Shown here: positions 4,509 through 36,693 of the stretch, in pieces | Numbering within the stretch: position 1 is the first letter of the stretch | How the letters are laid out: every line of letters starts with the position of its first letter | Assembly (NCBI GenBank): GCA_964535655.1 | Contig: CAZHTP010000003.1 | Span: 131,396 to 195,395 of the forward strand | Length of the DNA: 64,000 nucleotides | From: an uncultured Gammaproteobacteria bacterium | GTDB lineage: Bacteria; Patescibacteriota; Microgenomatia; JALYQM01 | Direction: 5' to 3' | Program-made: the position numbers and the translations under genes | The notes under the pieces: generated by a model | Seen by the model: the letters and a program-made list of their open reading frames with translations, nothing else | Database searches by the model: none | Told to the model about the DNA's origin: nothing

Positions 4509-4563
4509 GACTTGATTATACTATTTTAGTCGTTTATTATCATCCCACTTCAGGCTGAATTCT

Positions 4564-4818: not shown

Positions 4819-4869
4819 GACGAAGTTACGCAAAACCTACCTGATGATGAAAATAGTTTTTATTCCCTA

Positions 4870-5121
4870 ATGAAATCTATTCCTCAAAATTCGTCCGTGT
4901 ATGTTGATAATTTTGACTTCCCTGAGATTCGTCGAGGACTAATTTTGAGATTGTCACACACCAATTTATTATATGGCCCTGCCTATCTTCAAGCGGCACT
5001 GCAAAATCCAACTATAAAATACCTCTTTCTTAATCCTACCAACGTAACGGAACAAGTAATAGTAGCGTTTATATTCAAAGACAAAGTACGTGAAGTTGAG
5101 TTGTGGGAGATGAAGAATTAA
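4870..5121 (+). CDS. hypothetical protein
   Basis: ORF in the same gap; no recognisable domain. May be spurious. Confidence 0.2.
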   Translation: MKSIPQNSSVYVDNFDFPEIRRGLILRLSHTNLLYGPAYLQAALQNPTIKYLFLNPTNVTEQVIVAFIFKDKVREVELWEMKN

Positions 5122-10000: not shown

Positions 10001-10103
10001 CAACTTCAAAATTGGGATAATCAGTTTTAAGAACAGAAGATATACACTCTCTTGTATCAAGTAGTCCGTTAAAATTTAAAATGATTACGGTTACTTTTGG
10101 CAT
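7053..10103 (-). CDS. GT2 glycosyltransferase fused to a large polytopic membrane domain and a C-terminal extracytoplasmic domain (1016 aa)
   Basis: N-terminus VTVIILNFNG...EVVVIDNGSKEN...LLNNDT (GT2). This is followed by ~12 hydrophobic segments, then a ~250-aa hydrophilic C-terminus. Confidence 0.65.
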   Translation of the reverse strand: MPKVTVIILNFNGLLDTRECISSVLKTDYPNFEVVVIDNGSKENQASKLVSEFKDPRVKIIRNEINYGFAEGNNRGIQESDAPYVILLNNDTTVEKDWIHELVKVAESDSKIAALQPKIRSYFEQEYFEYAGAAGGYIDKLGYPYARGRVGFELEKDLGQYNTNVEIFWASGSCILLRKSVLAETGLLPTDFFFHHEEIDLCWRIKNLGYKIVCAPKSIIYHKGLGSSKDILPKKVFFVHKNNLLLLARNMSISRLLYVLPLRMAMDYVSCLFYLTKGQLFYIGSVLKAHAIFLKQGLPIILGRIINKQEKKYPAEHFLKPFSIYFEYFVQKKKRFSEIIPSDEEKVPTIYYEKILPGNVIEKNNKQIVSFLQTPHTIFFLLATILCISWFRSRMLIVSGEESLVFFNPGRIIQVYNSPWYETGTGFPMPVVQPRVPLLFIAWFFSSFLKPFLAQAIIYWLLLISGLSGMYAVSKKLIKDEKAALIIALFYLLNIYSMSQIWGRLLTTGTTLWAYLPWFLLTWMEWVTTGQKKYFFSFLLLSIPYSYAFGQPSAVLVLWLIAGIYTVTSLTIPLGKNRKIIARAVAAWGGWTVANTWWIYPYLKMGANSFETINQSKENLSSLAGVSQFFPISQILLLRQTAIFSSTNYGGWYLSSEAYWISWLILVFVLLGVFFLHKNRSYLFVFLVFVFGLIISKGTNAPFGEQLFSWLFQTIPASQSLRNSYEKAGIIFLFPYAIFFGAGVQIALSRIKNRSILLVSSGLIFFLCIGILVWPMWKGTVYGAGVGNTHVKVPIDYEIINKKIREDHSDGRIVHLPIVNGDGMEYLWPTGKYSGLEPSEFLFDNPSISKILRTPYYDSKYLQLYKSFGKENFQELLKEMDVRYLVLHKDNGVVATGVDSTEEVKKKLQLYPNIKLEKEEKNLELYLNSDAKKNTRITADAGINISYERKSPMFYTVTVKDSNRPFRLIFKETFNKNWQASIGKELLTSHTKIYEYANSWAIDKKGSYTIEVRFRI

Positions 10104-10969: not shown

Positions 10970-12928
10970 TTATCTTTTTTCATATAGTTCAATCTGTGCA
11001 TTATCAAAGGTTTTTTTTACGTTTAAAGTTCCAATTTCATTGGAATAAAGCTCTTGCCCGAGGTAACGAGGAACTAAGATGATAGCGTTGTGGTCAATGT
11101 TTAAAGTCATAGGCTGATCTTTTTTCCGTGTATAGTACTGCCACTTAGTCTTGCTTAATTTCTCTGCCAAGTAAGACTTGGCGTAGATAAATGGTGTACG
11201 AGCGCGATATTCCACAGTTTGGTTGGGCGCCAGATAAATAACTTTTTTATGGGAGTTTCTTAGCTTCGTAAGTGCTTCGATTTCGTATGAAGTGAGAATA
11301 CTATTTTCAGGATCTTTTAGTTGCTGATACAGCCACATTGAGGGAATGATAATTACTAACAATGGAATAAGAGTTGCTAGTTTTTTATTCCCGGTTTTGA
11401 AAAGTACGACCGTTGTCGTTAGTAAGCCAAGAAGAATAAAGCCATACCATAGATTAATTACAATATTTCTTTTACTTTTACTAACAGATTCTTTCCAAGC
11501 TTTGAACTCTTTGCTGATTTTTTCTATTTTAAGCAGAACCTGTGCCTGTTGCGTGTACTGTAACTGCAGCGTATGGTTTTCTTTGTAATCAAATGGGAAT
11601 TCTTCGTCATTAACAAATAACTGCTTCGGAGCAAAGGTCACCAGATTTTTCTGACCGTCAAAAACAGTAACATAAATTCCCTCTTCTTCAATTCTTAGAA
11701 TTCCTGTATCTTGAGCAATTTGCTTTTCCTGCTGAGGGAACCTTACTGAATCTACAACTGCCTTGGTGTTAATTCTAAGTGATTTTTGTGTATTTGGAAT
11801 AACATTAAAATCTTCAGATGACGTGTTTTTATAATCTCGGACATCGAATAAATACACTTTATCTCCTCTTCTTTGAATGCCTGCCCGATAAAAGGATGAA
11901 TTATACCAAATGGTTTGATTGTTATTTTCGTAATCTTTGGAAATAAAATATGCTGTAGGTGGCAAGATCTGTTTTGCGTTTAAAAATTGTGTGGCATACT
12001 CCTTCATCGTTCGTAGTTGCAGTCGTCCTTCTTTCTCCCACCCTTTGGTTTGAGCAACTTGTTTTCCATAATCCCGATAGCCTTCTGGGATTATTCCCCC
12101 TTCAAGGCCAAAAACTAATTGATCTCCGGCTTTTTTCAGAAAAATATCCTGCAAATACTGAATATAGCGTAAGTCGTATCCTTTAGTGGCATAATCCTGC
12201 ATGCTGAAGGTGCTGTGAGTAACTGAATCACCATAGGCACGATTAGGGTCTCGCGGCGCCCATTGCATTACTACGGCTTTGCTACTTGATTCATAATCTT
12301 TTGCTGGGACGGTTGCATTATCTGGTCGGGAAAGATATGGGATGCTCCACGGAGTTCCCCAAATAGAATAGGCATCGGTATTAAATTGATCGGAGCACTG
12401 GAGAACAGCGGTTATTCCATATTTCTGTTTCATATACTCAATGGGTTCTGCACCTACCCACCACGCTCCAACAGATGTTGGATAGTATCCGAAGACCGAC
12501 TTGAACTTATTAAAAGTAGTATCGATTATTTTATGTCGTTCGTATAAATCGTAGGAGACGAGTAATAATCCATCGGAATGGTACCATTGATTTTTTCCCC
12601 GGTACTGTACTTCGGATTTTTGGGCAGTATTTTTATCTATTTCCAAAAATATTCCGTGCTCCTGGTTTTGCATTTCTGCTTTAGCAAGATTGGTCATTTG
12701 ATTGTTTTCTAAGGCTGAATATTGCCACAACCACGTCGCTGAAACTGAAGCATCTTTGGTATATTGCCATTGGGATTTAAGGCTGGCTACTAGGTCCTGA
12801 TTTTCCAACCCCAATTGTGGTCCGCGTAGAGGATTAACGATTGTGATGGTGCCCGAAGCAACGGCCTTGCTAGGATGTGTGAGTAAGAACAGAAACACGA
12901 AGATAATTATTGCGATTCGTTTATACAT
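10970..12928 (-). CDS. exported hypothetical protein with signal peptide and C-terminal pair of TM helices
   Basis: MYKRIAIIIFVFLFLLTHPSKAVASG signal; 650 aa, W/Y-rich ectodomain; no confident family assignment. Confidence 0.45.
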   Translation of the reverse strand: MYKRIAIIIFVFLFLLTHPSKAVASGTITIVNPLRGPQLGLENQDLVASLKSQWQYTKDASVSATWLWQYSALENNQMTNLAKAEMQNQEHGIFLEIDKNTAQKSEVQYRGKNQWYHSDGLLLVSYDLYERHKIIDTTFNKFKSVFGYYPTSVGAWWVGAEPIEYMKQKYGITAVLQCSDQFNTDAYSIWGTPWSIPYLSRPDNATVPAKDYESSSKAVVMQWAPRDPNRAYGDSVTHSTFSMQDYATKGYDLRYIQYLQDIFLKKAGDQLVFGLEGGIIPEGYRDYGKQVAQTKGWEKEGRLQLRTMKEYATQFLNAKQILPPTAYFISKDYENNNQTIWYNSSFYRAGIQRRGDKVYLFDVRDYKNTSSEDFNVIPNTQKSLRINTKAVVDSVRFPQQEKQIAQDTGILRIEEEGIYVTVFDGQKNLVTFAPKQLFVNDEEFPFDYKENHTLQLQYTQQAQVLLKIEKISKEFKAWKESVSKSKRNIVINLWYGFILLGLLTTTVVLFKTGNKKLATLIPLLVIIIPSMWLYQQLKDPENSILTSYEIEALTKLRNSHKKVIYLAPNQTVEYRARTPFIYAKSYLAEKLSKTKWQYYTRKKDQPMTLNIDHNAIILVPRYLGQELYSNEIGTLNVKKTFDNAQIELYEKR

Positions 12929-16845: not shown

Positions 16846-19680
16846 TTACTTATATTGGAAGTACCCTCCACACATCAACCATTCTGATTGTTTGTATCCT
16901 TTGGAACATCCATTATCGGTAGTCCAGGTACCTGTTGAAAGCACTGAAGGACTGGCACTCATATAATCTGTTCCGTCAATATTGATTTTCTCAATGCGGA
17001 CATTACGATCCTCTCCTGTTGCAGAATTGAAATAGTCATTTAAGAATCTGACCCGAACTTGCTCCGGTACAATTTTATAGGTCGCGTTAAATACTTTTTC
17101 GACAAACTGACCAGTAACCGGATTACCGGCAATACCGGTGAATGAAGCAACCTGTCTAAAGCCAGCATTATTTATATTAACGTTTAATCCAATTGAGGGA
17201 TATACTCCTCGCACTGCGTTTCCTGCAGCATATATTGCTACTCGTGAGCCTGTTGAAACCAACGGTGGTGGGGTTATATTATTTATGGTTGTCGACGCAG
17301 GTGTTGCGGTTGGAACTAGACTTGGGGTCTTGTTTGGTGAAGGAGACTGTGTAATTGAACTTGTAGCTACTGGAGTTCCACCACTCTCAAGACCCATTTT
17401 CTGTTCAATAAACCAATAACTGTCATTGGCGCGCATAGCAGGGCTAATATATGAGGTGAAATTAGAAAATAGATCACGTGGTTGTGTAAATGTTGGTGCA
17501 TTATTTTTATCGTAATCGAGTTCGATATGGACGTTAAGGACATCAGTGCCGACGTTAAACATGAGCTGGTTCATTCCTTGAATCAGTTCTGCCGGATCAA
17601 TGTAGATTCCATCAGAATGCGGCGTATATGTTCCTACAATTTCCGTAATATTTTGTGATTGAATATTTAGTTTTGGATCTGGAAGTGGATATGTTTTACC
17701 ATTTACCACTACATTTTGACTTGAGTTCCAGGTATATGTCGAATTGCCAAATGGTTGCATTGTAAACATTAAACGAGCTTTACCGACTGGAGTACCAATG
17801 GGATCAGGAATTGGTATTTTTGTAGTTCTGTTACCTGATGGAACCGGGTTTGCCACTGTGCCGCGAGCAATCATTGGAGTTGTGCCTGTTGCTTCGCCGT
17901 CGATATAGTTATGTGTTACGATTGTCGGCGCAGGTCCATTGAACCCAAAATTATCCCAATGAAGCATGGAGGTGGTCGGACCAATAATTCCGTTATATTG
18001 TTTTCCGGTGTTATATGAGAATAGCGTTGAATGAATCTGATATTTATTTATATTTGCAAATAGCGCGGGGGTTGCGGCTTCAGCCATTAAAGCGCTATCT
18101 ATAAATAATTTTATTTTTTGAGGTGAATATTGTATAACCCAATGCCTTCGGACGTTAGGAACTGGGTTAATGGGTGCACTAATTTCAGCGATAGGACTAA
18201 ATCCACCGGTCTGTTTTCCGGCAATATTACAATCCTGAATAGAGGCTCCACCATCCCAGGTTGCGCTGGCCTGCTTAGTTTGGTTAAGGGAATGCGGATT
18301 ATTAGAAGCGTCATAATAGTGGAATACTATTTTATCCATATATTGGGTAATGCGAATCATTCTACCCGGATCTTCGTGATCGGCATCAAAGAGATCATTG
18401 TGGCTAGTGATATCAAGCGGCATACCATTTTTACGAGCGTCGGCAGGGATGATATCGATGTACCAAACATCTCTTGGCTGAGATACCCCGTCCATATCGA
18501 ATTCAATTTGCCCTGGGTTTGCTTCGGATTTACCTGTAATATCAAAGATCGCCCGTGGGCGTGCAACGTTTCCATCTCGGTCACAATTTGATTCAGTTTG
18601 ATTATGAGCATGGAATTGGGAGTTAATAAATTGCCCATCTTCACCTACTTTAACGCATGCGGTTGAAGCATGATTCCATTTTGCTTCATCAAACCCACCT
18701 GCTGAAATGTTGAAATCGTCAAAAAACCCGGTTAAACGTGATCGCATCGCGTCTACTCGAGCAGTGGTTGGGATAACTGAAGTTACAACCGGAAGAGACA
18801 CATTTCCATTTGCCACTGCGTAGGTATCTGAACCACCTTGTTCACTTGATGTTGGTATTGTATTGTATGATCCCTGTACCGATTGCACTTGAACAATATA
18901 TTTTACTCCATTTTCAAGTGGTTGAATTTGGGTAATGGGATGAATTGTTTGCTTCATATCGGTAAATGTTCCAAGACTTTCTTTGCCCCAGCGAACAACA
19001 TACCCTACCACATTTCCTCCACTTGCCGGATCCCAGGTAACGGTGGCAACTTGATCATCAGCAAAAATTTGTACATTTTTTGGTTGCGGAATACCTGAAA
19101 GTTCAGCAGCCATTGATTGATTAGCTCTACTAGCATTAAAGAGAGCTGCAACAATTGTTTTTTGATACGTAGCAATTGTTATAATAAAGGCAAAAACTAA
19201 GACAAACACAAGAGCATCGAATGCAAGCGTTTGAATATTTGTTTTCTTAACGGCTGGAGCATTTTTATTACTGATATTACCGTACAATGCTAAAGCAATT
19301 AATAATGCCGCAGCTGTTAACACTAAAAGAACGGTGGTTCCTGTTGAGGCTGAGAACCAACCAATCTGGGCAATATCTACGGTAAGTGGCTTCCCTTCTA
19401 ATTTTACGGTGTTATTATATGTTTTTCCATTATAAAAAGTTCGCAATGAATACTCGCCGTGAGGTATATCTTCGAAGGTCGCAAATCCTTGTGTATCGGT
19501 TTTTCTGCTTTGATCAGCAAGCGAAATATCCGTGTTTGGAAGAACTGCGGATTTATTGAGAACTCGTACTGTCGTAAACATTGGCATTGCCATTTGATGC
19601 TGGGAATAAACTGGTAGCGTAACCACTCCAAAAGATATTACGATGAAAGTAAGAAGCATGACTTTTAATTTTTTACGCAT
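16846..19680 (-). CDS. large cell-surface protein (944 aa): signal peptide, CarboxypepD_reg-like domain, two TM helices, fibronectin type III domain, ConA/GH16-like domain and C-terminal carbohydrate-binding-like module
   Basis: N-terminal signal. DTQGFATFEDIPHGEYSL (CarbopepD_reg-like). FN3-like VATVTWDPASGGNVVGYVVRW. DDFNISAGGFDEAKW resembles the GH16/ConA-like N-terminal motif. Cys-containing C-terminus. Confidence 0.5.
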   Translation of the reverse strand: MRKKLKVMLLTFIVISFGVVTLPVYSQHQMAMPMFTTVRVLNKSAVLPNTDISLADQSRKTDTQGFATFEDIPHGEYSLRTFYNGKTYNNTVKLEGKPLTVDIAQIGWFSASTGTTVLLVLTAAALLIALALYGNISNKNAPAVKKTNIQTLAFDALVFVLVFAFIITIATYQKTIVAALFNASRANQSMAAELSGIPQPKNVQIFADDQVATVTWDPASGGNVVGYVVRWGKESLGTFTDMKQTIHPITQIQPLENGVKYIVQVQSVQGSYNTIPTSSEQGGSDTYAVANGNVSLPVVTSVIPTTARVDAMRSRLTGFFDDFNISAGGFDEAKWNHASTACVKVGEDGQFINSQFHAHNQTESNCDRDGNVARPRAIFDITGKSEANPGQIEFDMDGVSQPRDVWYIDIIPADARKNGMPLDITSHNDLFDADHEDPGRMIRITQYMDKIVFHYYDASNNPHSLNQTKQASATWDGGASIQDCNIAGKQTGGFSPIAEISAPINPVPNVRRHWVIQYSPQKIKLFIDSALMAEAATPALFANINKYQIHSTLFSYNTGKQYNGIIGPTTSMLHWDNFGFNGPAPTIVTHNYIDGEATGTTPMIARGTVANPVPSGNRTTKIPIPDPIGTPVGKARLMFTMQPFGNSTYTWNSSQNVVVNGKTYPLPDPKLNIQSQNITEIVGTYTPHSDGIYIDPAELIQGMNQLMFNVGTDVLNVHIELDYDKNNAPTFTQPRDLFSNFTSYISPAMRANDSYWFIEQKMGLESGGTPVATSSITQSPSPNKTPSLVPTATPASTTINNITPPPLVSTGSRVAIYAAGNAVRGVYPSIGLNVNINNAGFRQVASFTGIAGNPVTGQFVEKVFNATYKIVPEQVRVRFLNDYFNSATGEDRNVRIEKINIDGTDYMSASPSVLSTGTWTTDNGCSKGYKQSEWLMCGGYFQYK

Positions 19681-19716: not shown

Positions 19717-20847
19717 TTATATATTTTTTGAAGCTGCTAGAAGAGAAAGCGACTTCTCTGTAGCGTTCTTCCATGTAAACTGGTTACTCCAATCCTTAGC
19801 ATTGGACTGGAATTGTTTATACAACTCCTGATTGGACACAAGATCTGTAACTCCTCGAACAAAATCCTCTTCGCTTGAAACTACGAAACCGGTGCTATTG
19901 TTATTTACACTGTTTCTTAACCCCGCAGCGTCAAAAACTACCGCTGGAGTGCCAACTGCGTTGGCTTCAATTACAACTAGGCCCCATCCTTCTTTATACG
20001 AGCCATGGACTAACATTGTTGCTTTTTGAAGTAATTCAAATTTTTTTTCCTGGGATACTTTTCCATAAAAAGTTATATCGTTATGACATTCTTCAGACTT
20101 AACTTTATTAACTACCTGTTGTCCATACGGCAATGAATGATCTCCGACAACCCATAACTTGCAATTTGATATTTCTTTTTTTATCAATTTAAAAGCACTA
20201 TATACCCGATCAAATCCTTTCATTGGACGTAATTGACTCAAAAAAATAATAGTTGGTTCTATTTCTTTAGGATACGTTTTTAAGCCATTGGGGACGGTAA
20301 CGCCGTAGGGAATTAATGTAATGTTGTTTTTAGGTATACCGATTTTTATAAGATCATCGACGGTCGTTTGTGCTCCGGCGATGATCGGTACTTTTTGATA
20401 TGCCTTAAAAAATAATGGTTCGACAAGGTTTTGCATTATCCAACTGAGCGGAAACGGTACCGTTTTTTTCCAAATGTCCCCGGCAACTTCATGTATTATT
20501 ACTACTTTTTCTTTTTTGATGTAGAGTGGCGTAAGGAACGGAGGGCCATGAATTTCATCCACAACAAAATCAAATTCTTTGTGCCATTTTGTCATCCATT
20601 TGATAAAAATAAACAGGTGGATTAGACCTAAAAACCACATCCATTTTTTTCCGATATGCTCATATTCAACTCCATTTTTTGATGTTATTGAGGTGCTTCC
20701 TGGATAATTTATGCTTACCCAGTGAACTCGATGCCCGGCTTTAACCCAGGCAATGGCGTGTTGCTCACCCGAGATTTCTGCGCCACCAGCGTTGGGATTT
20801 GTTATATCTTTCCATGAAAGCCAAAGAATGTTCATATTATTCATCAA
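19717..20847 (-). CDS. GT4-family glycosyltransferase
   Basis: KEGWGLVVIEANAVGTPAVVFDAAGLRNSV. Confidence 0.75.
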   Translation of the reverse strand: MMNNMNILWLSWKDITNPNAGGAEISGEQHAIAWVKAGHRVHWVSINYPGSTSITSKNGVEYEHIGKKWMWFLGLIHLFIFIKWMTKWHKEFDFVVDEIHGPPFLTPLYIKKEKVVIIHEVAGDIWKKTVPFPLSWIMQNLVEPLFFKAYQKVPIIAGAQTTVDDLIKIGIPKNNITLIPYGVTVPNGLKTYPKEIEPTIIFLSQLRPMKGFDRVYSAFKLIKKEISNCKLWVVGDHSLPYGQQVVNKVKSEECHNDITFYGKVSQEKKFELLQKATMLVHGSYKEGWGLVVIEANAVGTPAVVFDAAGLRNSVNNNSTGFVVSSEEDFVRGVTDLVSNQELYKQFQSNAKDWSNQFTWKNATEKSLSLLAASKNI

Positions 20848-21613
20848 ATTGCTTAATTAACCAGTTTTCTTTGTTCGCGTCATCGTAATAATGTAGAATG
20901 TGCATTCTGTAAAAAACAGCTGCTGTATCCCACAACATATTTACGATCGCTTTGCGATTTATACTCGTATTTGAAAAAACATGTGTGAGCTCTACGGGAG
21001 CTTCGTAGACCTTAGTGTAGCCTAAGTGATAGGCTACGGCGAGCATTTCGATATCAAACGCCCACCTTTTGATTAGTAATCGCGGCATGACATCTTCTAG
21101 AACCTGACGCTTAAAAATCTTGAGTCCAGTTTGTGTATCTCGAATAGTTAATCCGAAAAGCATTTTGCACACTATCTGATACCCGAAACTGTATACTCTG
21201 CGCAACCACGGATATACTACTTTTGAAGCAGGATGCCTTTTAGATCCAACAATAATGTCTGCTTTGTACCATTCCATATGCTCAAGCAGCATCGACAGCC
21301 CATTTGGATTTAAATCCATTCCTGAATCTATGAATGCGATATATTCTCCCGTAGCTTTTGAGATTCCGTATCGAACGGCGTATCCTTTGCCGCGATTTTT
21401 ATCATACGAATATAACTTTACTTTTGACTTCGGAGAAGCAACCTCTTCCTTAAATTCCTCCATCTTTTGAAAAGTTTTATCTGAGCTTCCGTCATTTACA
21501 ACAATCATTTCATAGTCATAGCGCAATTGTTCTAACACTTTTTGAATATGATCTAGGTCTTCCACTATGGTTTTTTGCTGCTTATAGGCAGGAATTATAA
21601 CTGAGATTTTCAT
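20837..21613 (-). CDS. polyprenyl-phosphate sugar transferase (DPM1/ArnC/GtrB-like GT2)
   Basis: KISVIIPAYK...MIVVNDGSSDKT...NRGKGYAVRYGISKATGEYIAFIDSGMDLNP...IRDTQTGLKIFKR...FDIEML. This is the classic Dpm1/ArnC signature. Confidence 0.8.
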   Translation of the reverse strand: MKISVIIPAYKQQKTIVEDLDHIQKVLEQLRYDYEMIVVNDGSSDKTFQKMEEFKEEVASPKSKVKLYSYDKNRGKGYAVRYGISKATGEYIAFIDSGMDLNPNGLSMLLEHMEWYKADIIVGSKRHPASKVVYPWLRRVYSFGYQIVCKMLFGLTIRDTQTGLKIFKRQVLEDVMPRLLIKRWAFDIEMLAVAYHLGYTKVYEAPVELTHVFSNTSINRKAIVNMLWDTAAVFYRMHILHYYDDANKENWLIKQFDE

Positions 21614-22962
21614 AAAGCTTTCTTACGCATTGAAAAATAGAATTGTATTGTTAGGAGCATGTATATTACTACACAACTGCCTAATACTAGTATAGAGACA
21701 GTAATTAACTGCGTAATGGTTTGATGAAAGAAGAAAATTCCAACGGCTTGAATAATTGCGGCGACCATAACCATCCCGGCTGTTTTGTTTTTTCCAACAG
21801 ATAAGAAGAAAAATGAAAAAACATTAAGCAGTGCGTAAAATAATTGCGAAATACTAAACATGCCTACATAGGGAACTGCATCAATGAATTTCTGGCCAAA
21901 GAGCATGGATATAACTAGTTTCGGGAACAGTATGTATATGGTTGTCACAAACCCTGCCCCAGCAGTCACTACTCCTAATACAACTGCAAATAATGGTAGA
22001 AAATTTTTCTTCTGAGCAACTCTTTGTACAATTTGAGGAAACATTACAATAACCAATGGTTGCGTAAAGAAAGGGATAACTTTACAAGTTATGGCTAAAG
22101 ATGAATATAAGCCTGCTTCAAATGGTGATAAGAAGGATTTAGCTAAAATTACATCGACTTGTACAAGGCTTCCCAATCCCCAAGCATTTAAGGTTGAAAA
22201 CAAAGCAAAGACTAACAATTCTCTATCAATTTTGAACGATTTGGTGGGATCAACGTAGGGCACGAAAAGATATCGCAAGAAATTTTTAGACTTTTTGATG
22301 AACTGGCTCGAATTTAGGCTTGTTTGATGGACGATGTTATCGATTGCCACCCATGATAGAGTTATAACCGCAAAAGATGAAAGTATCATTGCGATTAATA
22401 CGCCATTAACTCTTAACCCTAGCATGATAAGGGTTATTGCAAGAATGATTCTTGATGTTACCAAAATTCCAGCATATACACTGGCTGTGGCAAATCGTTG
22501 TAAGCCGGTAAATGCTCCATTTAATAGTGTTTGAGGAAATGTTGTTGCAAAGATAATACTTATTAAGATTAGCGACCAGAAATCTTTTAGTTTTAAATTA
22601 CTTAGTATCTGATTTTGAAATAAAACAAGAATACACAAAAAAATCGCTGAAAATATCAGTGAATACTTTGTCATTATTATGAGGAGTGGCTTTATTTTTT
22701 GTAACTCACCTTTTGATGAATATAGTGCTACATATTTTGTAACCAGCGTTGCTAAAACATTTGATGGTACTGAGGATAAATATAAAATCGAGACGAGTGC
22801 TAAATATTCACCATACCCCACTACTCCTAACATCCTGCCAATAATGACATTAAAGATATAACTAAGAACATTTACGCCGAACGCTCCCACGAATGCGACT
22901 GCGCTCCCCTGAAAAAAAGGGTGTTTAACAATTTTAACTACCGATTCTTTGGAGAGATTCAT
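21610..22962 (-). CDS. Wzx-like polysaccharide/oligosaccharide flippase (MOP/MATE-like superfamily)
   Basis: 450 aa, ~12-14 hydrophobic helices, polysaccharide biosynthesis protein-like; sits within the GT operon. Confidence 0.65.
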   Translation of the reverse strand: MNLSKESVVKIVKHPFFQGSAVAFVGAFGVNVLSYIFNVIIGRMLGVVGYGEYLALVSILYLSSVPSNVLATLVTKYVALYSSKGELQKIKPLLIIMTKYSLIFSAIFLCILVLFQNQILSNLKLKDFWSLILISIIFATTFPQTLLNGAFTGLQRFATASVYAGILVTSRIILAITLIMLGLRVNGVLIAMILSSFAVITLSWVAIDNIVHQTSLNSSQFIKKSKNFLRYLFVPYVDPTKSFKIDRELLVFALFSTLNAWGLGSLVQVDVILAKSFLSPFEAGLYSSLAITCKVIPFFTQPLVIVMFPQIVQRVAQKKNFLPLFAVVLGVVTAGAGFVTTIYILFPKLVISMLFGQKFIDAVPYVGMFSISQLFYALLNVFSFFFLSVGKNKTAGMVMVAAIIQAVGIFFFHQTITQLITVSILVLGSCVVIYMLLTIQFYFSMRKKAL

Positions 22963-23995
22963 ACACTGAAACCGTTTCCTGTGTCATTTTTACCAATGAG
23001 AATTTCTTAGATTGCTCAAGACTTTTTTCTTGTAATGCTTTATAGGCTGCTAGATCTAGTTCAAACATTTTTTCAATTGCTTCTGCTGTTTCGTTTATAT
23101 CATATGGATTAACAAGAATACCCGAATTACCAACTATTTCTGGCTGGCTTCCCGTATTACCTGCAATTACCGGTGTACCACAGCTCATTGACTCTAGCGC
23201 AGTTAAGCCAAATCCTTCATATAAAGAATTATGCATAGTTGCCCGAGCTAAGGTATATAGGGATGACATATCTTCCGTTGGCACGAACCCTAATCTATGA
23301 ACTCTTTTACCCAGACTAAAATTTTGAATATCCTCAACTATTTCTTGTAGCTCTGGAATTAAGGGAGCACTTTGATCAAGTGCTCTTCCAACGAGTACTA
23401 GATGAAATTCTGGATTTGTCCTCGTAAGAGCATCGAATAAGGCGTGAAAGTTTTTGTGTTTATTGATGTCTCCCACGCGAATAATATATTTTTCGGGCAA
23501 GTTATATTTTTTCTTTATTTCTTGGAGTTTATCGGCATTTTTCTCACGATGATACACAGGGTCGCAGGCGAGATAGACTGTTTCTATTTTTTCTTTTAGT
23601 ATTCCAAGATGTTTAGAGATATCGTTTTTTGAACACTCCGAATCGGTGATTATTTTGTCTACTTTTTTAAGATTTCTTTTTTGAAAATGCAGTTTTATTT
23701 TTCCCTTAACACCAGGTGGAAATAACTTTGGTAACACGAGTGGTGTAACATCGTGCACGGTCACAACAACTGGAGTGTTTTTCCTTTCTGGTAAGGTGCG
23801 GAAAAAAAGATCGAAAAATGGATAATGAATAATATCCGGTGAGATTTTATTTAGCTCGGATTCATTTTTAACTTGAAGATATTCATTACCATCATGTAGA
23901 TTTTTCAAACCTTCAACTAATTGCCTTGTGTACATGCCTACCCCTCTTGCTGCATTAGCATTGTGTAATGGTGACGTGTCTATTGCGACTTTCAT
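22934..23995 (-). CDS. GT4-family glycosyltransferase
   Basis: YEGFGLTALESMSCGTPVIAGNTGSQPEIVG. Start re-assigned to the internal ATG (MKVAIDTSPL...) at 23995. The longer track ORF would overlap the divergent gene. Confidence 0.75.
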   Translation of the reverse strand: MKVAIDTSPLHNANAARGVGMYTRQLVEGLKNLHDGNEYLQVKNESELNKISPDIIHYPFFDLFFRTLPERKNTPVVVTVHDVTPLVLPKLFPPGVKGKIKLHFQKRNLKKVDKIITDSECSKNDISKHLGILKEKIETVYLACDPVYHREKNADKLQEIKKKYNLPEKYIIRVGDINKHKNFHALFDALTRTNPEFHLVLVGRALDQSAPLIPELQEIVEDIQNFSLGKRVHRLGFVPTEDMSSLYTLARATMHNSLYEGFGLTALESMSCGTPVIAGNTGSQPEIVGNSGILVNPYDINETAEAIEKMFELDLAAYKALQEKSLEQSKKFSLVKMTQETVSVYESLQRIGS

Positions 23996-24041
23996 AGAGC
24001 AATTATACATAATTGCGCCGATTTGATACAATTTTCCTGCT

Positions 24042-24977
24042 ATGAAAGATACTAAAGATATTGGGTTAACGGTTGCCCTTGCTGTTTTCAATGAAGAAAA
24101 TACTCTACAGGAATGCCTTGAATCCATAAAATCGATTGCAGATGAAATTGTAATTATAGATGGCGGTAGCACGGATAATACTATTGATATAGCTAAATCT
24201 TTTAATGCTGTTATTATTCAAACAGATAATCCAGCTGTTTTTCATATAAACAAGCAGAAATCTCTTGGCGCTTCGCACGGAAAATGGATTCTTCAACTGG
24301 ATGCTGATGAGCGAGTTTCACCTGAGTTGGCAAAAGAGATCCGTAAGATTGTTGAGAGTAGTGATTCTGAACTTGAGAATCATGATGTAGATGCAACGCG
24401 ATACGAAATGCTTAAGAAGCATATGGAGCTCCTTGCTGCTCGGGAAGGGGCGATCGGAACAGATGAAGGCCCGATTGTTGCCTTTTTTATTCCGCGTAAA
24501 AATTATTTCCTGGGCAGGTTTTTAATGCATGGTGGAGTATACCCGGATGGAACAATACGGCTGGTACGAAACGGAAAAGCAAAATACGGATTAAAAGATG
24601 TTCATGATCAAATGATCATTGATGGACAAGTTTCATTTTTGTCTAACAATTTAATTCACATGGCTGATCCTACTTTTGAACGGTATTTGACTCGATCAAA
24701 TAGATATACCGGCTTACAAGCAAAGCAATGGTTGGAGAATGTTGGTAAGAACGGCACTCATGGAGTGCTCGGTCCCAATGCTTCAGCTCCAGGAACTTCA
24801 TTTTTATCCATTTTTAAATATATGGTTGTTTTGCCTAAAATAACATTTTTATCTCTCTATTTCCGTCACCGGGGATACCGAGATGGCTTCCCTGGTTTTA
24901 TATGGGCGCTTTACTCGGCTTTGCATATTGCTTCCAGTTATGTTAAGTATTGGGAAATGCGAAGACGCGTTAACTAG
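24042..24977 (+). CDS. family 2 glycosyltransferase
   Basis: IGLTVALAVFNEENTLQECLESIKSIADEIVIIDGGSTDNT...QLDADE. Confidence 0.8.
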   Translation: MKDTKDIGLTVALAVFNEENTLQECLESIKSIADEIVIIDGGSTDNTIDIAKSFNAVIIQTDNPAVFHINKQKSLGASHGKWILQLDADERVSPELAKEIRKIVESSDSELENHDVDATRYEMLKKHMELLAAREGAIGTDEGPIVAFFIPRKNYFLGRFLMHGGVYPDGTIRLVRNGKAKYGLKDVHDQMIIDGQVSFLSNNLIHMADPTFERYLTRSNRYTGLQAKQWLENVGKNGTHGVLGPNASAPGTSFLSIFKYMVVLPKITFLSLYFRHRGYRDGFPGFIWALYSALHIASSYVKYWEMRRRVN

Positions 24978-25013: not shown

Positions 25014-25085
25014 GTCCCCGTAGCTCAATGGATAGAGCAAGGGTTTCCTAAACCCTAGATGCAGGTTCGATTCCTACCGGGGATA
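25014..25085 (+). tRNA. tRNA-Arg (anticodon CCT)
   Basis: Hand-folded cloverleaf: acceptor GTCCCCG/CGGGGAT. D-arm GCTC-AATGGATA-GAGC. Anticodon arm AGGGT-TTCCTAA-ACCCT (anticodon CCT). T-arm GCAGG-TTCGATT-CCTAC (one mismatch). Discriminator A; CCA not encoded. Confidence 0.8.
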
Positions 25086-25088
25086 CAT

Positions 25089-25754: not shown

Positions 25755-27266
25755 CTATACTTTTTTTACTTCATGATAGGCACGATCGGTGTTAATATTT
25801 TCGAGATCATACTTTTCTCCCATAATATTTCTTGCGGCATAAAGCCCCATTTGAATGGAATGATCGGAATTATTATATTTAAAGGTTCCATTGCGGCCGA
25901 TAATTTGAAGATTCTTAAATCCCTTTAAATATTCTTTTATTTTTACAACTTTTTCTTTATAACCAATATCATAGACTGGGTATTCTTTTGGGACACGATG
26001 AACATATGAACCGACAATATTTTCTTTCTCAAAATAATGGAATTCATTAATATAATTAGTGGCAACCATTTCAACCAATTCATCGTCAGTCTTGTTCCAG
26101 GTTGTGTCGCCTTCTTGGCATGCTAACTCAAAAACGATGGACGTTGTACCTGCTGGGGATAGTCCTTCTGTCCAGGAATCCATCTCCATTAGACGGACAA
26201 AAATAAGTTTTGAATCCTGGGTATAAACCCAATTATCTGGTGTGAAGTGAGCTTTATTTATCATTAAGGTAACTTGCACTTCGTCTCGGAAAGACAGGCC
26301 GTGGGCCGCTTCTGTAACATCTTTGGGAGCTGGTGGATCCATTCTGATTACTAGTTCTGTAATAGGTATACTGGAGATGCAGTACTCCGGCTGAATTCTT
26401 GTCACACTATTTTCCTCGTTGTGGTTACTTGGAATAGCTTTATTACTTATTGTGATATTTTTATCGTGAATGTCACTTGCGTCTGTTGATGTAAGCGTGA
26501 TCGCAGATATGATTCTTTCTCCATTACTTTCTGACCATTCAATTTTTGTAACATCTTTTGATAATAAAATATTATTATCGGGTTTTGCGAGAATATCTTC
26601 TTCCATTTTTTCTGCTATTCGCCCAAACCCAGTTTTAGGGTATATAAATTTATCTATTAAACTAATCACATTTTTTGATTTAACAATTGAATCCTTAACG
26701 GCAGACCAAATGGAAAGTCCTTTCGATCTTTGCGATGCCCAATCTCCGGAGAGCTCAGTCGTTTTTCTTCCCCATAATTTTTCAGTGTAGAAATGGAAAA
26801 ATTCGTAATATAGTTTATATCCAAATTGATTAATGTACGCATCGGCGATGTTATTGACTTCTTTTTTGCGTAATCCGGTTTTTAATTGAATGCGTATCCA
26901 GGCATAGGATGAAATGGCCCAGATTGCGTTAAAAATCCCAAGATTACCTAACGCATTAAGCGGTTTTAAGGGGTAATAATAATATTTTCCTTTGTAATAA
27001 ATTCTAGTTAATCTGTTAACGTCGACCAGCTCTTCGTTTAGCAAATCTTTAAGCCAATTATTAATTTCATCAGATTTGGTAAACCAGCGATGCGGGCCTG
27101 AGTCAAATGAATAGCCGTCTTTTTTTAAAGTAACGGCTAACCCTCCAACATAGGGATTCTTTTCAGCTAAAATGACTTTTTTGTTGGACTTTTTTGTTAC
27201 TTCGTGCCCTGCAGCGAGTCCGGCCAGACCTGCTCCTAATATCAATACATCAGTTTTTTGTTCCAT
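25755..27266 (-). CDS. FAD-dependent oxidoreductase (amine oxidase / UDP-galactopyranose mutase-like Rossmann fold)
   Basis: VLILGAGLAGLAAGHEV dinucleotide-binding motif at the N-terminus; 503 aa. Confidence 0.6.
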   Translation of the reverse strand: MEQKTDVLILGAGLAGLAAGHEVTKKSNKKVILAEKNPYVGGLAVTLKKDGYSFDSGPHRWFTKSDEINNWLKDLLNEELVDVNRLTRIYYKGKYYYYPLKPLNALGNLGIFNAIWAISSYAWIRIQLKTGLRKKEVNNIADAYINQFGYKLYYEFFHFYTEKLWGRKTTELSGDWASQRSKGLSIWSAVKDSIVKSKNVISLIDKFIYPKTGFGRIAEKMEEDILAKPDNNILLSKDVTKIEWSESNGERIISAITLTSTDASDIHDKNITISNKAIPSNHNEENSVTRIQPEYCISSIPITELVIRMDPPAPKDVTEAAHGLSFRDEVQVTLMINKAHFTPDNWVYTQDSKLIFVRLMEMDSWTEGLSPAGTTSIVFELACQEGDTTWNKTDDELVEMVATNYINEFHYFEKENIVGSYVHRVPKEYPVYDIGYKEKVVKIKEYLKGFKNLQIIGRNGTFKYNNSDHSIQMGLYAARNIMGEKYDLENINTDRAYHEVKKV

Positions 27267-27311: not shown

Positions 27312-28928
27312 TTAGTATTGCGAGCCGATAATTCTAAAGACATCGGTCTTATTATCTGGTGTCCTGATTGTTTTAATACCTGGTTCACCTTCAGGAATTT
27401 CTAAATTTCCTCCTACTAACAAGGTTTTGTGAAGCAACCGATCCTGGGACCAATTTACCTTGCGAAATTCATATTTATCAAAGCCTTTATTGTACTCTCC
27501 GTTGTTTACCCATATTTTTGGATCATATTTTTTATAGTATAGAAAATAAATGTATGGTTGATCGTACGCAGGAGTAATAATCACTTTATCGTAATGAGGT
27601 TCAAGCATTGATACCGTTTTAACTAACTCACGATAACCCGTTTGCCATTCAAGCGCATATTCAAAATCCATTTGGGTGTAATACTGATTAAAATAATATA
27701 TGAGATTTATGCTATAGAGAATCAGGATTACAGCGATGGGATACACCATTTGTATTTTTTTATTTCGAACGTATTGAACTAATGCAAAGATTCCCACAGC
27801 AACAGCAATCTGCGGTATTGGTAAAAAAAGAATGCTGCGGATTGCGTGTGGAGTGCCTGTTGATATTGCTGCCGGAATTGGCGCAATGACCGCCCAAAAG
27901 AAATAGATAAATTTACTACTAAATTTGGCACGAATAAGCGCCATGATGCCGATAAGAATTAGCGGAAACTCAACTAAAAAGAATAAGCCAACATCGGGAG
28001 CATGGTGGCGTGCAACTACATCTCCTTTCAGGAACATATTGATCGGATTGAAATGATTTATATATCCTTCTGTAAATTCTTTAAGGTATTCAACTCGCCT
28101 GTTGTGTAAAAATGAATCCCAACGATTTAGTTGGTTATCCTGCCGTTCATATTCTAGCGGTCTTAATATTTCGGTGGACGGATTAAATATGCTTACTGAA
28201 GAGAATCTCTCGGCTGCTGTTCCGTGAAAGAGAACTACTACAAGCGGAAGAAGTATTATTATGCCAATCAAGGTTGGAATAATTATTTGTTTGGACCGCC
28301 TGAAAATTAATTTATGATATCTTAGCGCGATTCCTATAAGTACCAGTGGTACGATGAGACGCGCTGCGTGATAGGCATATAAAGAAGTGGCAAGAAGTAT
28401 TGCAGCTAAAGTAGCATCTCTCACTTTCTCAGATGAAAGCCACTTTAGTACGAAATACATTCCCCAGGTGACAAAAAAGACGGCAATATTTCCTTCAAAA
28501 GCAGCCCGGGAAAATTGCAGATGCCAAGGCGAAATGGCAAAAACTGACATTGAGAGTAACGCGATAGTTTCTTCGTGTGGAGAGAAACTCGATTTTCTAA
28601 AGAATTCGTAGGTAAGGAAATATACACCGAGAACTGTTAATGAACCAAAGAAAGCCGCAGGGAATCGAGTGCCGAATTCATTTAAGCCAAAAATTGCGGT
28701 GGGAATGATGTCTAGATAGGTATAGGCAGGCGGCTTGTAATCGTTGAATGAACGAATCGATAACGGCCAAGAATTGCCATACTCATCCGCTCCAGTTTGT
28801 AATAGTGTGTAGGCGTTGTAGCCAAGCGAGGCTTCGTCCCAATCAAGAGATGCGGGCACTGCCCCGAGTTTGTAAAAGCGCAGGAAAATGGCTAAGATGA
28901 AGATTGCACAGAATAAGTACTTTTTCAC
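27312..28928 (-). CDS. GT-C fold membrane glycosyltransferase, PMT_2 (GT39/GT83, ArnT/PMT-like) family, paralog 1
   Basis: FLRFYKLGAVPASLDWDEASLGYNAYTLLQTGADEYG (loop-1 DE motif). About 11 TM helices; C-terminal soluble domain. Confidence 0.75.
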   Translation of the reverse strand: MKKYLFCAIFILAIFLRFYKLGAVPASLDWDEASLGYNAYTLLQTGADEYGNSWPLSIRSFNDYKPPAYTYLDIIPTAIFGLNEFGTRFPAAFFGSLTVLGVYFLTYEFFRKSSFSPHEETIALLSMSVFAISPWHLQFSRAAFEGNIAVFFVTWGMYFVLKWLSSEKVRDATLAAILLATSLYAYHAARLIVPLVLIGIALRYHKLIFRRSKQIIIPTLIGIIILLPLVVVLFHGTAAERFSSVSIFNPSTEILRPLEYERQDNQLNRWDSFLHNRRVEYLKEFTEGYINHFNPINMFLKGDVVARHHAPDVGLFFLVEFPLILIGIMALIRAKFSSKFIYFFWAVIAPIPAAISTGTPHAIRSILFLPIPQIAVAVGIFALVQYVRNKKIQMVYPIAVILILYSINLIYYFNQYYTQMDFEYALEWQTGYRELVKTVSMLEPHYDKVIITPAYDQPYIYFLYYKKYDPKIWVNNGEYNKGFDKYEFRKVNWSQDRLLHKTLLVGGNLEIPEGEPGIKTIRTPDNKTDVFRIIGSQY

Positions 28929-30868
28929 TTGTTTTGATTATACCGTATTTGATAGAGGAACAATCCCTTTTTTTCTAATTTGTCCGCAATAAAATTATCA
29001 CTATTTTTACAATCTATTTGTTTTTCGCTTAAAAGGTATTTTGCATCCAATTTCTGCATGGTTTTTGCCGCCTGGTCTATCTGACATTGATCAGTGTAAG
29101 AATAAAGTTGGTCCAGATTTGCGAGGCGCGCTTTTTCTATGCCTCCGGCATCAAAAGGGGTACTGCTTTTTTCGTAATACACACTTCGGGCGCTTAAAGC
29201 AGACACATACGGTGCATGCGGCCAAATAATCTTTCCGCCTGGATCACGATTTGGAAGAAATACGATAAATTGGGATGGATCTACTTTATGATTAATTTCG
29301 TTAAGAATATCTAATTGTGGATATGAAACAACAACTTCCGGTTCCTTTAGGCCATTATTGCTGAAATCCTGCGCATACCCGACGAGTCCAGGAACTAACG
29401 CAATACATATAATAATTACTCTGACCAAGATGGATCTGTTTTTCTCGAGGAAGCTACCGACAACTATTCCTGTCGGTATTGATAATAAGGCTACGGCAAG
29501 CCATAAAAATTGACCGATATCAAACACTCCCTGGGATTGAATGAAGAAAGAAGGGATGAGAAGTGCTGCGACGGTAGAACAGAATAGTAGAATTGCCGCG
29601 CTACTTTGATATAGTTTTTTCTTGTGTAATTCATTTATTCCTAGAAGTAAAAGCACTCGACTTCCGATACTTAATGCCCAAAATAAAGTGACTGCCTGCA
29701 GGTACAACAGTAAAAGTCGCGCAAGATTGTTGTGTTCAAGAAAGATTGTTTTTTTGATATACCAGTGCCAACTATCAAATTTGTCCTGAGCTATGAAATG
29801 CTCATAATAAAGCCCTGGCGCCCAGACAAGACTTCCCTGCCCCCAATTTGATGGGAGGTAGGTGATTGCAGTGATAAGGAAGGCTGTTACTGTTACTAAA
29901 AATAGATTATATGTACTCACTATTTTTCTCGTACAAACAAGCTGCCAAAGAATGAGTGTTCCCATCCCTATTAGTCCTATAATCCCGGCATAGACTTTGG
30001 TTTGAGCAATCACTCCTATGAGCAATCCAGCGATTACTGCTTTTCGTCGATTAGATTCTTCAGATAGTACTACTGCCCAACCAGTGAGTAAAAAACTAAT
30101 GGCGAGAAGCCAGGAGGGATTATGAATTAGCCCAAGTGGGTCGACCACTCCGGTATATAAAAGCACACTATCACTTATGAGAGGAATAAAACTTCGACCA
30201 AAATAGGCCACTACTAAAACCCATAGTTTTTGTTTCTGACTAATTCTGAGGATACCGCCCAATAAGTAGAATGAAGCGCCATAAAGAAGAGATGTAAATA
30301 GGGCGAAATGACGGAATAATAAATCTATTGGGTTAAAGCCAAAAAACAATGAGAAACGACTTAGGAGGAACGGGTAAAAGTAATGATATCCGCGCATTTC
30401 GATTCCAGCTAACCCAGGCCTGGTTGGTGGAAAATGGTTTGTCATATTTTGAATGTAGGCTAAGAGAATAAACCCATCAACACTGTTTGTACCAAAAAAT
30501 TGAAGTCCTTTTGATGAGTAACTGCCGCTTTGAAAATCGAGAAATAGAAAAGCTAGCGATCCGAGCAGAATTATAAAAAGAGATTTACGATCGAGTGTAA
30601 TAAAGTTAATTTTTACTCGGTAGAGTCTGTATTTTAAGAAAATGAGTAACGTAATAAAAAGTAGTACTAATGGCAATTTTGTAACACCTGCCCACGCACT
30701 GAGATATGAAACTAATGTAAATACTGCAACTCCGAAAACCCATGAAAGAATAAACGATGTGCATTCTGAATATTTGACTCTTAATACCCATATTAGTAAT
30801 TTTCCGGGAATATAGAAACTGAGGTAAGCGAAGAAAAAGAATTGAAGAAGCTGTAGAAAAAAAAGCAT
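28925..30868 (-). CDS. large polytopic membrane protein (647 aa, >12 TM, C-terminal soluble domain); possibly another GT-C-like enzyme or polymerase
   Basis: Hydrophobicity pattern; embedded in and translationally overlapping the GT-C array; no motif recognised. Confidence 0.4.
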   Translation of the reverse strand: MLFFLQLLQFFFFAYLSFYIPGKLLIWVLRVKYSECTSFILSWVFGVAVFTLVSYLSAWAGVTKLPLVLLFITLLIFLKYRLYRVKINFITLDRKSLFIILLGSLAFLFLDFQSGSYSSKGLQFFGTNSVDGFILLAYIQNMTNHFPPTRPGLAGIEMRGYHYFYPFLLSRFSLFFGFNPIDLLFRHFALFTSLLYGASFYLLGGILRISQKQKLWVLVVAYFGRSFIPLISDSVLLYTGVVDPLGLIHNPSWLLAISFLLTGWAVVLSEESNRRKAVIAGLLIGVIAQTKVYAGIIGLIGMGTLILWQLVCTRKIVSTYNLFLVTVTAFLITAITYLPSNWGQGSLVWAPGLYYEHFIAQDKFDSWHWYIKKTIFLEHNNLARLLLLYLQAVTLFWALSIGSRVLLLLGINELHKKKLYQSSAAILLFCSTVAALLIPSFFIQSQGVFDIGQFLWLAVALLSIPTGIVVGSFLEKNRSILVRVIIICIALVPGLVGYAQDFSNNGLKEPEVVVSYPQLDILNEINHKVDPSQFIVFLPNRDPGGKIIWPHAPYVSALSARSVYYEKSSTPFDAGGIEKARLANLDQLYSYTDQCQIDQAAKTMQKLDAKYLLSEKQIDCKNSDNFIADKLEKKGLFLYQIRYNQNK

Positions 30869-30929
30869 TGTATGATTTACCCTTATTATTCCCTTACAAC
30901 TTGAAAAGTTATGAAAGTTGTGGATGTTA

Positions 30930-31439
30930 TTATATCTTTTTGTAACTATATTTACTTAAAATTGGCTCAAGATCTGCATAGGTTTTACCCTGAACCTGGG
31001 CAATAAATTTTTCCTGAGTTACGTCGACGAGACAAAAATCGGGCATTACAAATGTGTTTTTCTCTCGTTCGGTGGGAAATTCGCAATCGATCGAGACGAG
31101 CCCTTCTAGGGCGTCTTGGAACATATCTAATTCCATATTTAACCCATTATAGTTGTAAAAATATCTTATTTTGTGTAATTCTATACCTGGTAACTGCATT
31201 AGAACATTAAATTCATCCTCGTTAAGTTTGATAGTTTCTTCGATTTGAACTGAGGCATCTTCAGGATATTGTTGAGATTTTTTTGTTAGTTCGAATTTAT
31301 CGTCTTTCTTACGCAATCTTAATTTATGCGGAGAGGTGGTTTTGATGTATTTATCGTGAATATTTGTACGTTCGCATTCCTCGAGATTTTTAGGAAGATA
31401 TTTAGCCAAGTACGTTACTTCGATTTCAAGTTCGGACAT
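30930..31439 (-). CDS. CYTH-domain (triphosphate tunnel metalloenzyme) family protein
   Basis: N-terminal ELEIEVTY (ExE motif). Mid-protein basic residues. C-terminal LVSIDCEF resembling the terminal ExE motif of CYTH/CyaB-like proteins. Confidence 0.45.
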   Translation of the reverse strand: MSELEIEVTYLAKYLPKNLEECERTNIHDKYIKTTSPHKLRLRKKDDKFELTKKSQQYPEDASVQIEETIKLNEDEFNVLMQLPGIELHKIRYFYNYNGLNMELDMFQDALEGLVSIDCEFPTEREKNTFVMPDFCLVDVTQEKFIAQVQGKTYADLEPILSKYSYKKI

Positions 31440-31450
31440 ATTTTTAATCT

Positions 31451-33172: not shown

Positions 33173-33174
33173 AG

Positions 33175-36620: not shown

Positions 36621-36693
36621 AAAAATGTTTGCTGGTAAGCCGTTGTAGCCTTAGTATACCATTCCAATCTCTTCAATGATAAACTCAACTTAA

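Follow-up and report, generated by a model that had tools for sequence, protein, structure and literature searches.

A Dpm1-like glycosyltransferase as the probable supplier of lipid-linked sugar to GT-C paralogs in a Microgenomates glycosylation island

The DNA analysed here, referred to as the window, is a stretch of 64,000 nucleotides (assembly GCA_964535655.1, contig CAZHTP010000003.1, positions 131,396 to 195,395) from an organism titled uncultured Gammaproteobacteria bacterium and placed by GTDB in the Microgenomatia (Patescibacteriota). From 700 to ~38430 the window carries a glycosylation island, nearly all of it on the minus strand, and within this island lies a gene for a family 2 glycosyltransferase (GT2) that is the target of this study. 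We propose a model in which the target is probably a membrane-peripheral polyisoprenyl-phosphate glycosyltransferase (PI-GT) that supplies a lipid-linked sugar, via a flipping step, to a set of GT-C glycosyltransferase paralogs encoded nearby. The model is built on observed features of the locus: the fold of the target, its class (by sequence, structure and tree), retention of the residues that hold the lipid phosphate, the structure of the operon and its conserved synteny.

20837 to 21613, minus strand: target GT2 of the PI-GT (Dpm1/GtrB/ArnC) class, 258 residues, no transmembrane helix (open reading frame, hidden Markov models, fold, tree)

A preliminary description of this DNA, made from the letters alone, had placed a 258-residue GT2 at this position without stating the strand. 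The open reading frame (ORF) was confirmed on the minus strand with an ATG start, the plus-strand translation of the same interval being rich in stops, and all five motifs quoted from it were found in the translation (VNDGSSDKT, NRGKGYAVRYG, DSGMDLNP, IRDTQTGLKIFKR and FDIEML). Because it matches Pfam PF00535 (Glycos_transf_2) at E 3e-27 and 96 bits (cut-off 23.3) and has 5,763 database homologues at E<=1e-10, of which the best 120 are all 255-288 residues long, the target is a genuine gene rather than an ORF arising by chance. Named homologues and the titles of related genomes (Daviesbacteria, Levybacteria, Woesebacteria, Shapirobacteria and WWE3) assign the source organism to bacteria of the candidate phyla radiation (CPR) of the Microgenomates/WWE3 type. 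Many related loci from metagenome-assembled genomes (L003, L005, L008, L013 and others; TPA_asm) are also titled 'uncultured Gammaproteobacteria bacterium'; they are syntenic with Microgenomates/WWE3 loci and 55-79% identical to them, and their titles look like placeholder or wrong taxonomy.

The central question was whether, among the seven GT2s of the window, the target alone belongs to the Dpm1/GtrB/ArnC class. Five tests, which partly overlap, were all concordant with a polyprenyl-phosphate class for the target. Its top sequence match in the PDB was the dolichyl-phosphate mannose synthase of Pyrococcus furiosus (PfDPMS), with E 1.3e-14 over residues 1-206, followed by GtrB (target residues 2-171) and then ArnC (2-176/178); a family profile improved the match to the mannose synthase to E 4.4e-22. 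For chondroitin synthase, TarS, TagF and similar enzymes the alignment was confined to the nucleotide-binding half, ending at about residue 112-122, and for GT2s outside the PI-GT class overall it ended at about residue 112-135. Similarity of the target to the remaining six window GT2s is limited to the N-terminal half and does not exceed 25 bits. Among NCBIfam models, the long matches were to PgfS, ArnC, the polyprenyl-phospho-N-acetylgalactosaminyl synthase PpgS, AglJ (residues 3-210) and a haloarchaeal dolichyl-phosphate hexose transferase. The acceptor half (residues 116-258) of six diverse family members was also searched alone against 18,950 NCBIfam models. It matched the dolichyl-phosphate hexose transferase in 6/6 members and PpgS in 4/6, with one stray match (E 0.035) in a single member.

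The predicted structure of the target has GT-A topology (predicted local distance difference test score 86), and PI-GTs ranked top in both fold searches. A tree was built with ArnC, YfdH/GtrB, WcaA and WcaE of Escherichia coli MG1655, residues 1-196 of PfDPMS and the six other GT2s of the window as references. The split uniting the target family with ArnC, GtrB/YfdH and PfDPMS was recovered in 93% of 300 neighbour-joining bootstraps, with WcaA, WcaE and the six window GT2s on the opposite side. The preliminary description had assigned the target to the polyprenyl-phosphate class and had named clustering with GT2s that act from nucleotide sugar to acceptor as the result that would speak against this. 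The clustering found was the opposite one, and the assignment is borne out by the hidden Markov models (HMMs), the fold searches, the tree and the residues that contact the lipid phosphate.

These residues were mapped by a HMMER alignment to PfDPMS, and invariance was read from an 18-member family alignment with ~60% mean identity. In PfDPMS, R117, R131 and S135 position the phosphate of dolichyl phosphate (PMC5526996); the equivalent target residues K125, R138 and S142 are all invariant. PfDPMS D154, presumably the counterpart of the catalytic D157 of GtrB (PMC4728340), aligns with the invariant D159 of the target (in RDTQTGLK), and the gate residue F177 aligns with F186. The DXD motif of the class coordinates the metal and the nucleotide diphosphate (GtrB 94DxD96, PfDPMS 89DADLQH94), and its first aspartate, PfDPMS D89, corresponds to the invariant D96.

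The layout predicted for the target comprises a GT-A core with interface helix 1 at 136-153 and interface helix 2 at 220-239, and a low-confidence region of the model at ~207-219 coincides with the position of the flexible acceptor loop. Two amphipathic interface helices, one internal and one after the glycosyltransferase domain, joined to a flexible acceptor loop are a feature of the class that the model of the target also has. A hydrophobicity scan of the whole 258-residue protein found no transmembrane segment. Transmembrane topology varies among PI-GTs, and human DPM1 depends on separate chains (PMC4728340). Moreover, PfDPMS without its transmembrane domain is still membrane-bound and active (PMC5526996). 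The absence of a transmembrane helix is compatible with the class.

The target lies in a tight operon with a putative flippase gene and two genes for family 4 glycosyltransferases (GT4).

21610 to 22962, minus strand: Wzx-type membrane protein (MOP superfamily, Polysacc_synt), candidate flippase (PF01943)
19717 to 20847, minus strand: GT4 glycosyltransferase directly downstream of the target (Pfam)
22934 to 24172, minus strand: GT4 glycosyltransferase upstream of the Wzx-type gene (Pfam)

The Wzx-like neighbour named in the preliminary description matches PF01943 with 35.5 bits (cut-off 28.2) and has ~12-14 hydrophobic segments; its stop codon overlaps the ATG of the target as ATGA (21613-21610). 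On the other side, in-frame starts of the downstream GT4 (TTG at 20847, ATG at 20844) overlap the target stop codon. The upstream GT4 is listed with a GTG start that overlaps a divergent GT2 ORF (24042-24977) by 131 nucleotides. Since its homologues in loci L021 and L039 are shorter (~358-365 residues against 412 as listed), the true start probably lies downstream of this GTG. A scan for promoter and terminator consensus sequences between 16 and 31.5 kb revealed no enrichment relative to shuffled sequence (39 against 50.4 expected; 15 against 12.1) and was uninformative. Pfam recognised no initiating phosphoglycosyl-transferase (WecA/WbaP type) or Wzy polymerase among the scanned ORFs of the island.

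The presumed recipients of the lipid-linked sugar are encoded upstream of this operon.

27312 to 28928, minus strand: GT-C paralog 1, PMT / PMT_2 (Pfam, GT-C profile)
28925 to 30868, minus strand: 647-residue protein with ~14 hydrophobic segments, inside the GT-C array (hydrophobicity)
31451 to 33172, minus strand: GT-C paralog 2, PMT_2 / PMT (Pfam, GT-C profile)
33175 to 34971, minus strand: GT-C paralog 3, PMT, with PMT_2 slightly under cut-off (Pfam, GT-C profile)
34968 to 36620, minus strand: GT-C paralog 4, PMT_2 (Pfam, GT-C profile)
36694 to 38430, plus strand (opposite to the others): GT-C paralog 5, PMT_2 (Pfam, GT-C profile)
61399 to 63090, minus strand: further GT-C paralog, ~40 kb from the target, 470 bits to the GT-C profile (profile)
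63078 to 63983, minus strand: further GT-C paralog, 161 bits over profile positions 255-525 only, its ORF at the window end and partly seen (profile)

The GT-C paralogs of the preliminary description were thus recovered, and the window holds at least seven. Five of them (27312-38430), situated 5.7-17 kb upstream of the target, pass the Pfam PMT and/or PMT_2 thresholds, and the two at 61399-63983 were found by profile. Searched against the PDB, a profile of the five matched only ArnT, and this marginally (E 0.029); a single GT-C paralog and the Wzx-type protein, used as sequence queries, found nothing in the PDB. The polytopic protein at 28925-30868 has no family assignment, its one match being to DUF5518 (E 0.021), and the GT-C profile does not match it; a polymerase, a ligase or a transporter would each be conceivable.

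The target family was found in 566 species-representative genomes, from which 80 loci of 20 kb each were fetched; denominators below vary, only loci with enough flanking sequence being counted. In 63/77 loci the gene directly upstream, in the same orientation, is a homologue of the Wzx-type gene; this is the most conserved adjacency of all. Homologues of the downstream GT4 occur within 4 kb downstream in 47/64 loci, and those of the upstream GT4 upstream in 43/59. Single-sequence GT-C queries detected GT-C genes in 36/59 loci. This figure was too low, divergent GT-Cs having escaped detection (for example three PMT_2 genes in the WWE3 RAAC2 locus), and these queries were replaced by an iterated GT-C profile; in a check of specificity, this profile matched nothing but GT-C genes in the window. 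With this profile, 40 of the 43 fully flanked loci were found to contain at least one GT-C gene, 118 genes altogether, distributed one-sidedly with 109 upstream and 9 downstream of the target homologue; when all loci are taken together, 95% of the GT-C genes share the strand of the target. Measured against the downstream flank as an internal background, the association depends on position and does not simply follow from how abundant GT-Cs are. The co-occurrence with PMT_2-type genes that the preliminary description had asked to be examined is therefore strongly positive.

The complete genome of WWE3 RAAC2 (L032:393-9993) has the order DUF2079, Wzx, three PMT_2 genes, Wzx, target homologue and GT2. 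No GT4 gene lies between the Wzx-GT2 pair and the three PMT_2 genes, which argues for synthase, Wzx-type protein and GT-C as the minimal conserved unit. The presence of two Wzx-type genes in this module raises the question of whether their substrates differ.

For the window, we infer the reaction, the lipid, the sugar, the flippase and the acceptor as follows. At the cytoplasmic face, the target would take a single sugar from a nucleotide sugar and attach it to the phosphate of a polyprenyl carrier (presumably undecaprenyl phosphate), giving a polyprenyl-monophosphate sugar. Because it has no transmembrane helix, the enzyme would be held at the membrane by its interface helices, or possibly docked on the Wzx-type protein. 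The lipid-linked sugar would then be flipped, most plausibly by the Wzx-type protein encoded next to the target, and at the outer face would act as the donor for the PMT/ArnT-like GT-C array encoded just upstream. The acceptor that the GT-Cs would glycosylate outside the cytoplasm may be a surface protein or a cell-wall polymer. One speculative candidate for this acceptor, by O-glycosylation, is a 944-residue protein with a linker rich in S, T and P.

16846 to 19680, minus strand: secreted or membrane-anchored 944-residue protein, fn3 and CBM60-like domains (Pfam, hydrophobicity)

This protein is encoded directly downstream of the GT4 gene and has hydrophobic N-terminal segments, its S/T/P-rich linker spanning residues ~765-812; a homologue occupies the same position in L003.

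The closest parallel in system logic is multi-component (three-component) transmembrane glycosylation, in the variant in which a cytoplasmic GT-A enzyme works with a Wzx-type flippase and a GT-C enzyme, as in GacI(+GacJ)/GacK/GacL of Streptococcus pyogenes (PMC8035078). All three parts appear to be present in the window: a GT-A synthase (by class membership), an adjacent flippase candidate and GT-C genes. The two systems have a common parts list within a glycan cluster, namely a GT-A synthase without transmembrane helices, a Wzx-type candidate flippase and GT-C. They differ in that the target gene is translationally coupled to the Wzx-type gene, that the Gac system has one GT-C and the window five to seven paralogs, that GacJ has no small counterpart among the island ORFs screened (>=80-100 residues), and that the host here is a CPR bacterium; the comparison is one of system logic and parts.

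Among single enzymes, PpgS (NF058614) is likewise short, with a model of 226 positions. The match covers nearly its full length (target 4-212, model 3-199), and together with the dolichyl-phosphate hexose transferase PpgS makes up the pair of families matched by the acceptor half alone. As far as is known, PpgS and mycobacterial Ppm1 have no transmembrane helices and supply GT-C enzymes. Enzymes of the GtrB, ArnC, CsbB and PgfS types are usually paired with GtrA-type and not Wzx-type flippases. They are just 17-21% identical to the target and, in contrast to it, have two C-terminal transmembrane helices and form tetramers (PMC4728340). Relative to PfDPMS (PDB 5mlz) and Dpm1, the target is without the four-helix transmembrane domain, and its family is sister to the mannose synthase, ArnC and GtrB together and not nested with the former.

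Several observations weigh against the proposed model. The acceptor-half HMM matches are weak (E 7e-5 to 2e-2), though consistent, and the tree is a neighbour-joining tree with few references in which the family is sister to the characterised enzymes and not nested among them. NCBIfam equivalog scores fall far under their cut-offs, with 71.1 against 500 for PgfS (NF047588), 51.7 against 529 for ArnC (NF007986) and 43.9 against 370 for PpgS. Judged by these scores, the target family is a distinct subfamily and no orthologue of PgfS, ArnC or PpgS, and sugar specificity is therefore not transferable from them. The DXD motif is non-canonical: PfDPMS reads DAD..Q and the target DSG..D (D96-S-G98), such that the metal ligand D91 is glycine in the target and in 15/18 family members, DAD being kept in 3/18. 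A near-invariant D100 replaces Q93, the second metal ligand of PfDPMS, and DSG..D could thus form a shifted DxxxD metal site. To speak of a textbook signature, as the preliminary description had done, was an overstatement, given the glycine at the second DXD aspartate and the missing transmembrane anchor. Because the mannose-contacting H94 and K178 of PfDPMS are L101 and D187 in the target, mannose specificity is not implied, and an assignment of the donor sugar from active-site residues was dropped. The hydrophobic moment of interface helix 2 is modest (0.23). Island ORFs of at least 80-100 residues include neither a recognisable GtrA-type flippase nor a small GacJ/DPM3-like partner, smaller ORFs not having been screened systematically. 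Finally, the case is made from sequence, a structural model and synteny, and Wzx-type proteins classically flip diphosphate-linked oligosaccharides (PMC8035078). Flipping of a monophosphate-linked monosaccharide by such a protein has a proposed but undemonstrated precedent in GacK (PMC8035078). With these qualifications, the scheme of synthesis, flipping and GT-C transfer given in the preliminary description is supported.

It is highly improbable that the target is an ordinary GT2 that uses a nucleotide sugar to glycosylate a glycan, a protein or a soluble molecule directly, with a Dpm1/GtrB/ArnC likeness generic to the GT-A fold: GT2s outside the PI-GT class align only to about residue 112-135, the acceptor half matches lipid-phosphate enzymes alone (bar one stray), the triad K125/R138/S142 is invariant, and both the tree split and the two fold searches place the target with PI-GTs. 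An arrangement that we consider unlikely retains the synthesis of a polyprenyl-phosphate sugar by the target and gives the Wzx-type protein a different cargo, a diphosphate-linked repeat unit made by the GT4 and GT2 enzymes as the acceptor polymer. The monosaccharide-lipid would then cross by another protein or unaided, and adjacency would reflect a shared pathway instead of a hand-off. The classical Wzx substrate range fits this arrangement (PMC8035078), as do the two Wzx-type genes of the WWE3 module and the further polytopic membrane proteins without assignment nearby (28925-30868, an eight-helix protein of relatives, and DUF2079). However, the Wzx-GT2 pair is the most conserved adjacency, is translationally coupled and persists in WWE3 where GT4 genes are absent, and Pfam picked out neither an initiating phosphoglycosyl-transferase nor a Wzy-type polymerase among the island ORFs scanned.

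The same missing WecA/WbaP-type initiator counts in favour of another possibility, which strikes us as distinctly unlikely, that the target itself initiates a lipid-monophosphate oligosaccharide that the GT4 and GT2 enzymes extend, the Wzx-type protein flips and the GT-Cs transfer or polymerise. AglJ acts as such a lipid-monophosphate initiator in haloarchaeal N-glycosylation, and it is among the long NCBIfam matches of the target. Two GT4 genes bracket the target in the operon, in which it follows the Wzx-type gene, and this block is conserved in the proportions given above; oligosaccharide-lipids are, in addition, the normal cargo of Wzx-type proteins (PMC8035078). Against this, the WWE3 Wzx-GT2 pair adjoins three PMT_2 genes with no GT4 between, and several GT-C paralogs suit repeated additions of single sugars better than one en-bloc transfer. 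To our knowledge, characterised PMT/ArnT-type GT-Cs have so far transferred single sugars from monophosphate-linked donors, and we know of no description of monophosphate-linked oligosaccharide assembly in bacteria. A bolder form of the idea, in our judgement very unlikely, is that the Dpm1-like synthase without transmembrane helices and the Wzx-type protein form a dedicated complex that initiates an archaeal-style polyprenyl-monophosphate glycan in Microgenomates/WWE3, extended by GT4 and GT2 enzymes, flipped by Wzx and delivered by GT-Cs. If true, the envelope or surface proteins of these bacteria would be glycosylated by a core route that has not been described in bacteria.

The island as a whole encodes seven GT2s, four GT4s, three methyltransferases, one Wzx-type protein, five PMT/PMT_2 GT-Cs and several polytopic membrane proteins. 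The six other GT2s were considered as makers of the donor and rejected, their best matches being PgaC, EpsD, TuaG, MftF, a rhamnosyltransferase type, or GmaR/SunS. A serious candidate among them, because its homologue lies directly beside the GT-C array in most relatives, was the second conserved GT2 of the block, which is not PI-GT-like.

24042 to 24977, plus strand: second conserved GT2 of the block, GmaR/SunS-like, not of the PI-GT class (Pfam, NCBIfam, tree)

The nucleotide-binding half of this protein is closest to the protein/peptide glycosyltransferases GmaR and SunS. In the window and its three nearest relatives (L002, L003 and L005) the gene is inverted; in the other relatives that have it in the block, it is co-directional with the operon. 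Between it and a CHRD-domain lipoprotein-like gene lies a mid-island tRNA-Arg(CCT) gene (25014-25086, plus strand), on the strand opposite to the flanking operons. Adjoining GT-C paralog 1, as it also does in L002 and L003, is a gene for a FAD/NAD-binding protein of the amine-oxidase family (25755-27266, minus strand) that matches NCBIfam PRK07208.1-4 with 439 against a cut-off of 389 (product name 'hypothetical protein') and has a weak N-terminal likeness to UDP-galactopyranose mutase; its role in the pathway may be to modify a sugar.

In 43/80 relatives, a protein of ~386 residues with seven to eight transmembrane helices is encoded between the upstream GT4 and the Wzx-type gene (L021:7568-8728, L039:7601-8764); it has no homologue within the window. 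It has no Pfam match at E<0.1 and carries a conserved loop motif, W-x-NFDGEHYLSIAxxGY; this motif and the topology suggest another small GT-C-like enzyme. A 652-residue protein (10970-12928, minus strand) has three hydrophobic segments and no Pfam or NCBIfam match. Its homologue at L039:10789-12819 shows a signal-like N-terminus, a presumably extracytoplasmic domain of ~480 residues and two transmembrane helices near the C-terminus. At least eight relatives have a homologue of this protein inserted between the genes for the target GT2 and the downstream GT4, whereas the window copy is ~8 kb away. A fusion protein of 1016 residues (7053-10103, minus strand) joins an N-terminal GT2 domain, not PI-GT-like, to a polytopic region with ~11 hydrophobic segments, and may be a synthase-type or bifunctional enzyme. 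The gap at 4508-5118 contains only an 84-residue hydrophobic ORF.

Within the literature collection searched, no description of this glycosylation module in CPR/Patescibacteria was found; these bacteria are uncultured, have reduced genomes and possess poorly understood envelopes. The pathway follows a logic long familiar from Gram-positive and Gram-negative bacteria, actinobacteria and archaea, and its presence here is an extension and not a surprise. The target marks a module of lipid-phosphate-sugar synthase, Wzx-type protein and PMT-like GT-C arrays in at least 566 species-level genomes. Because the synthase is ~55-60% identical across orders, these data suggest that surface glycosylation by this pathway is important in the CPR lineage. 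The finding provides a well-founded functional annotation for CPR envelope glycosylation, and naming the single donor-making enzyme gives an entry point to what CPR bacteria put on their surface.

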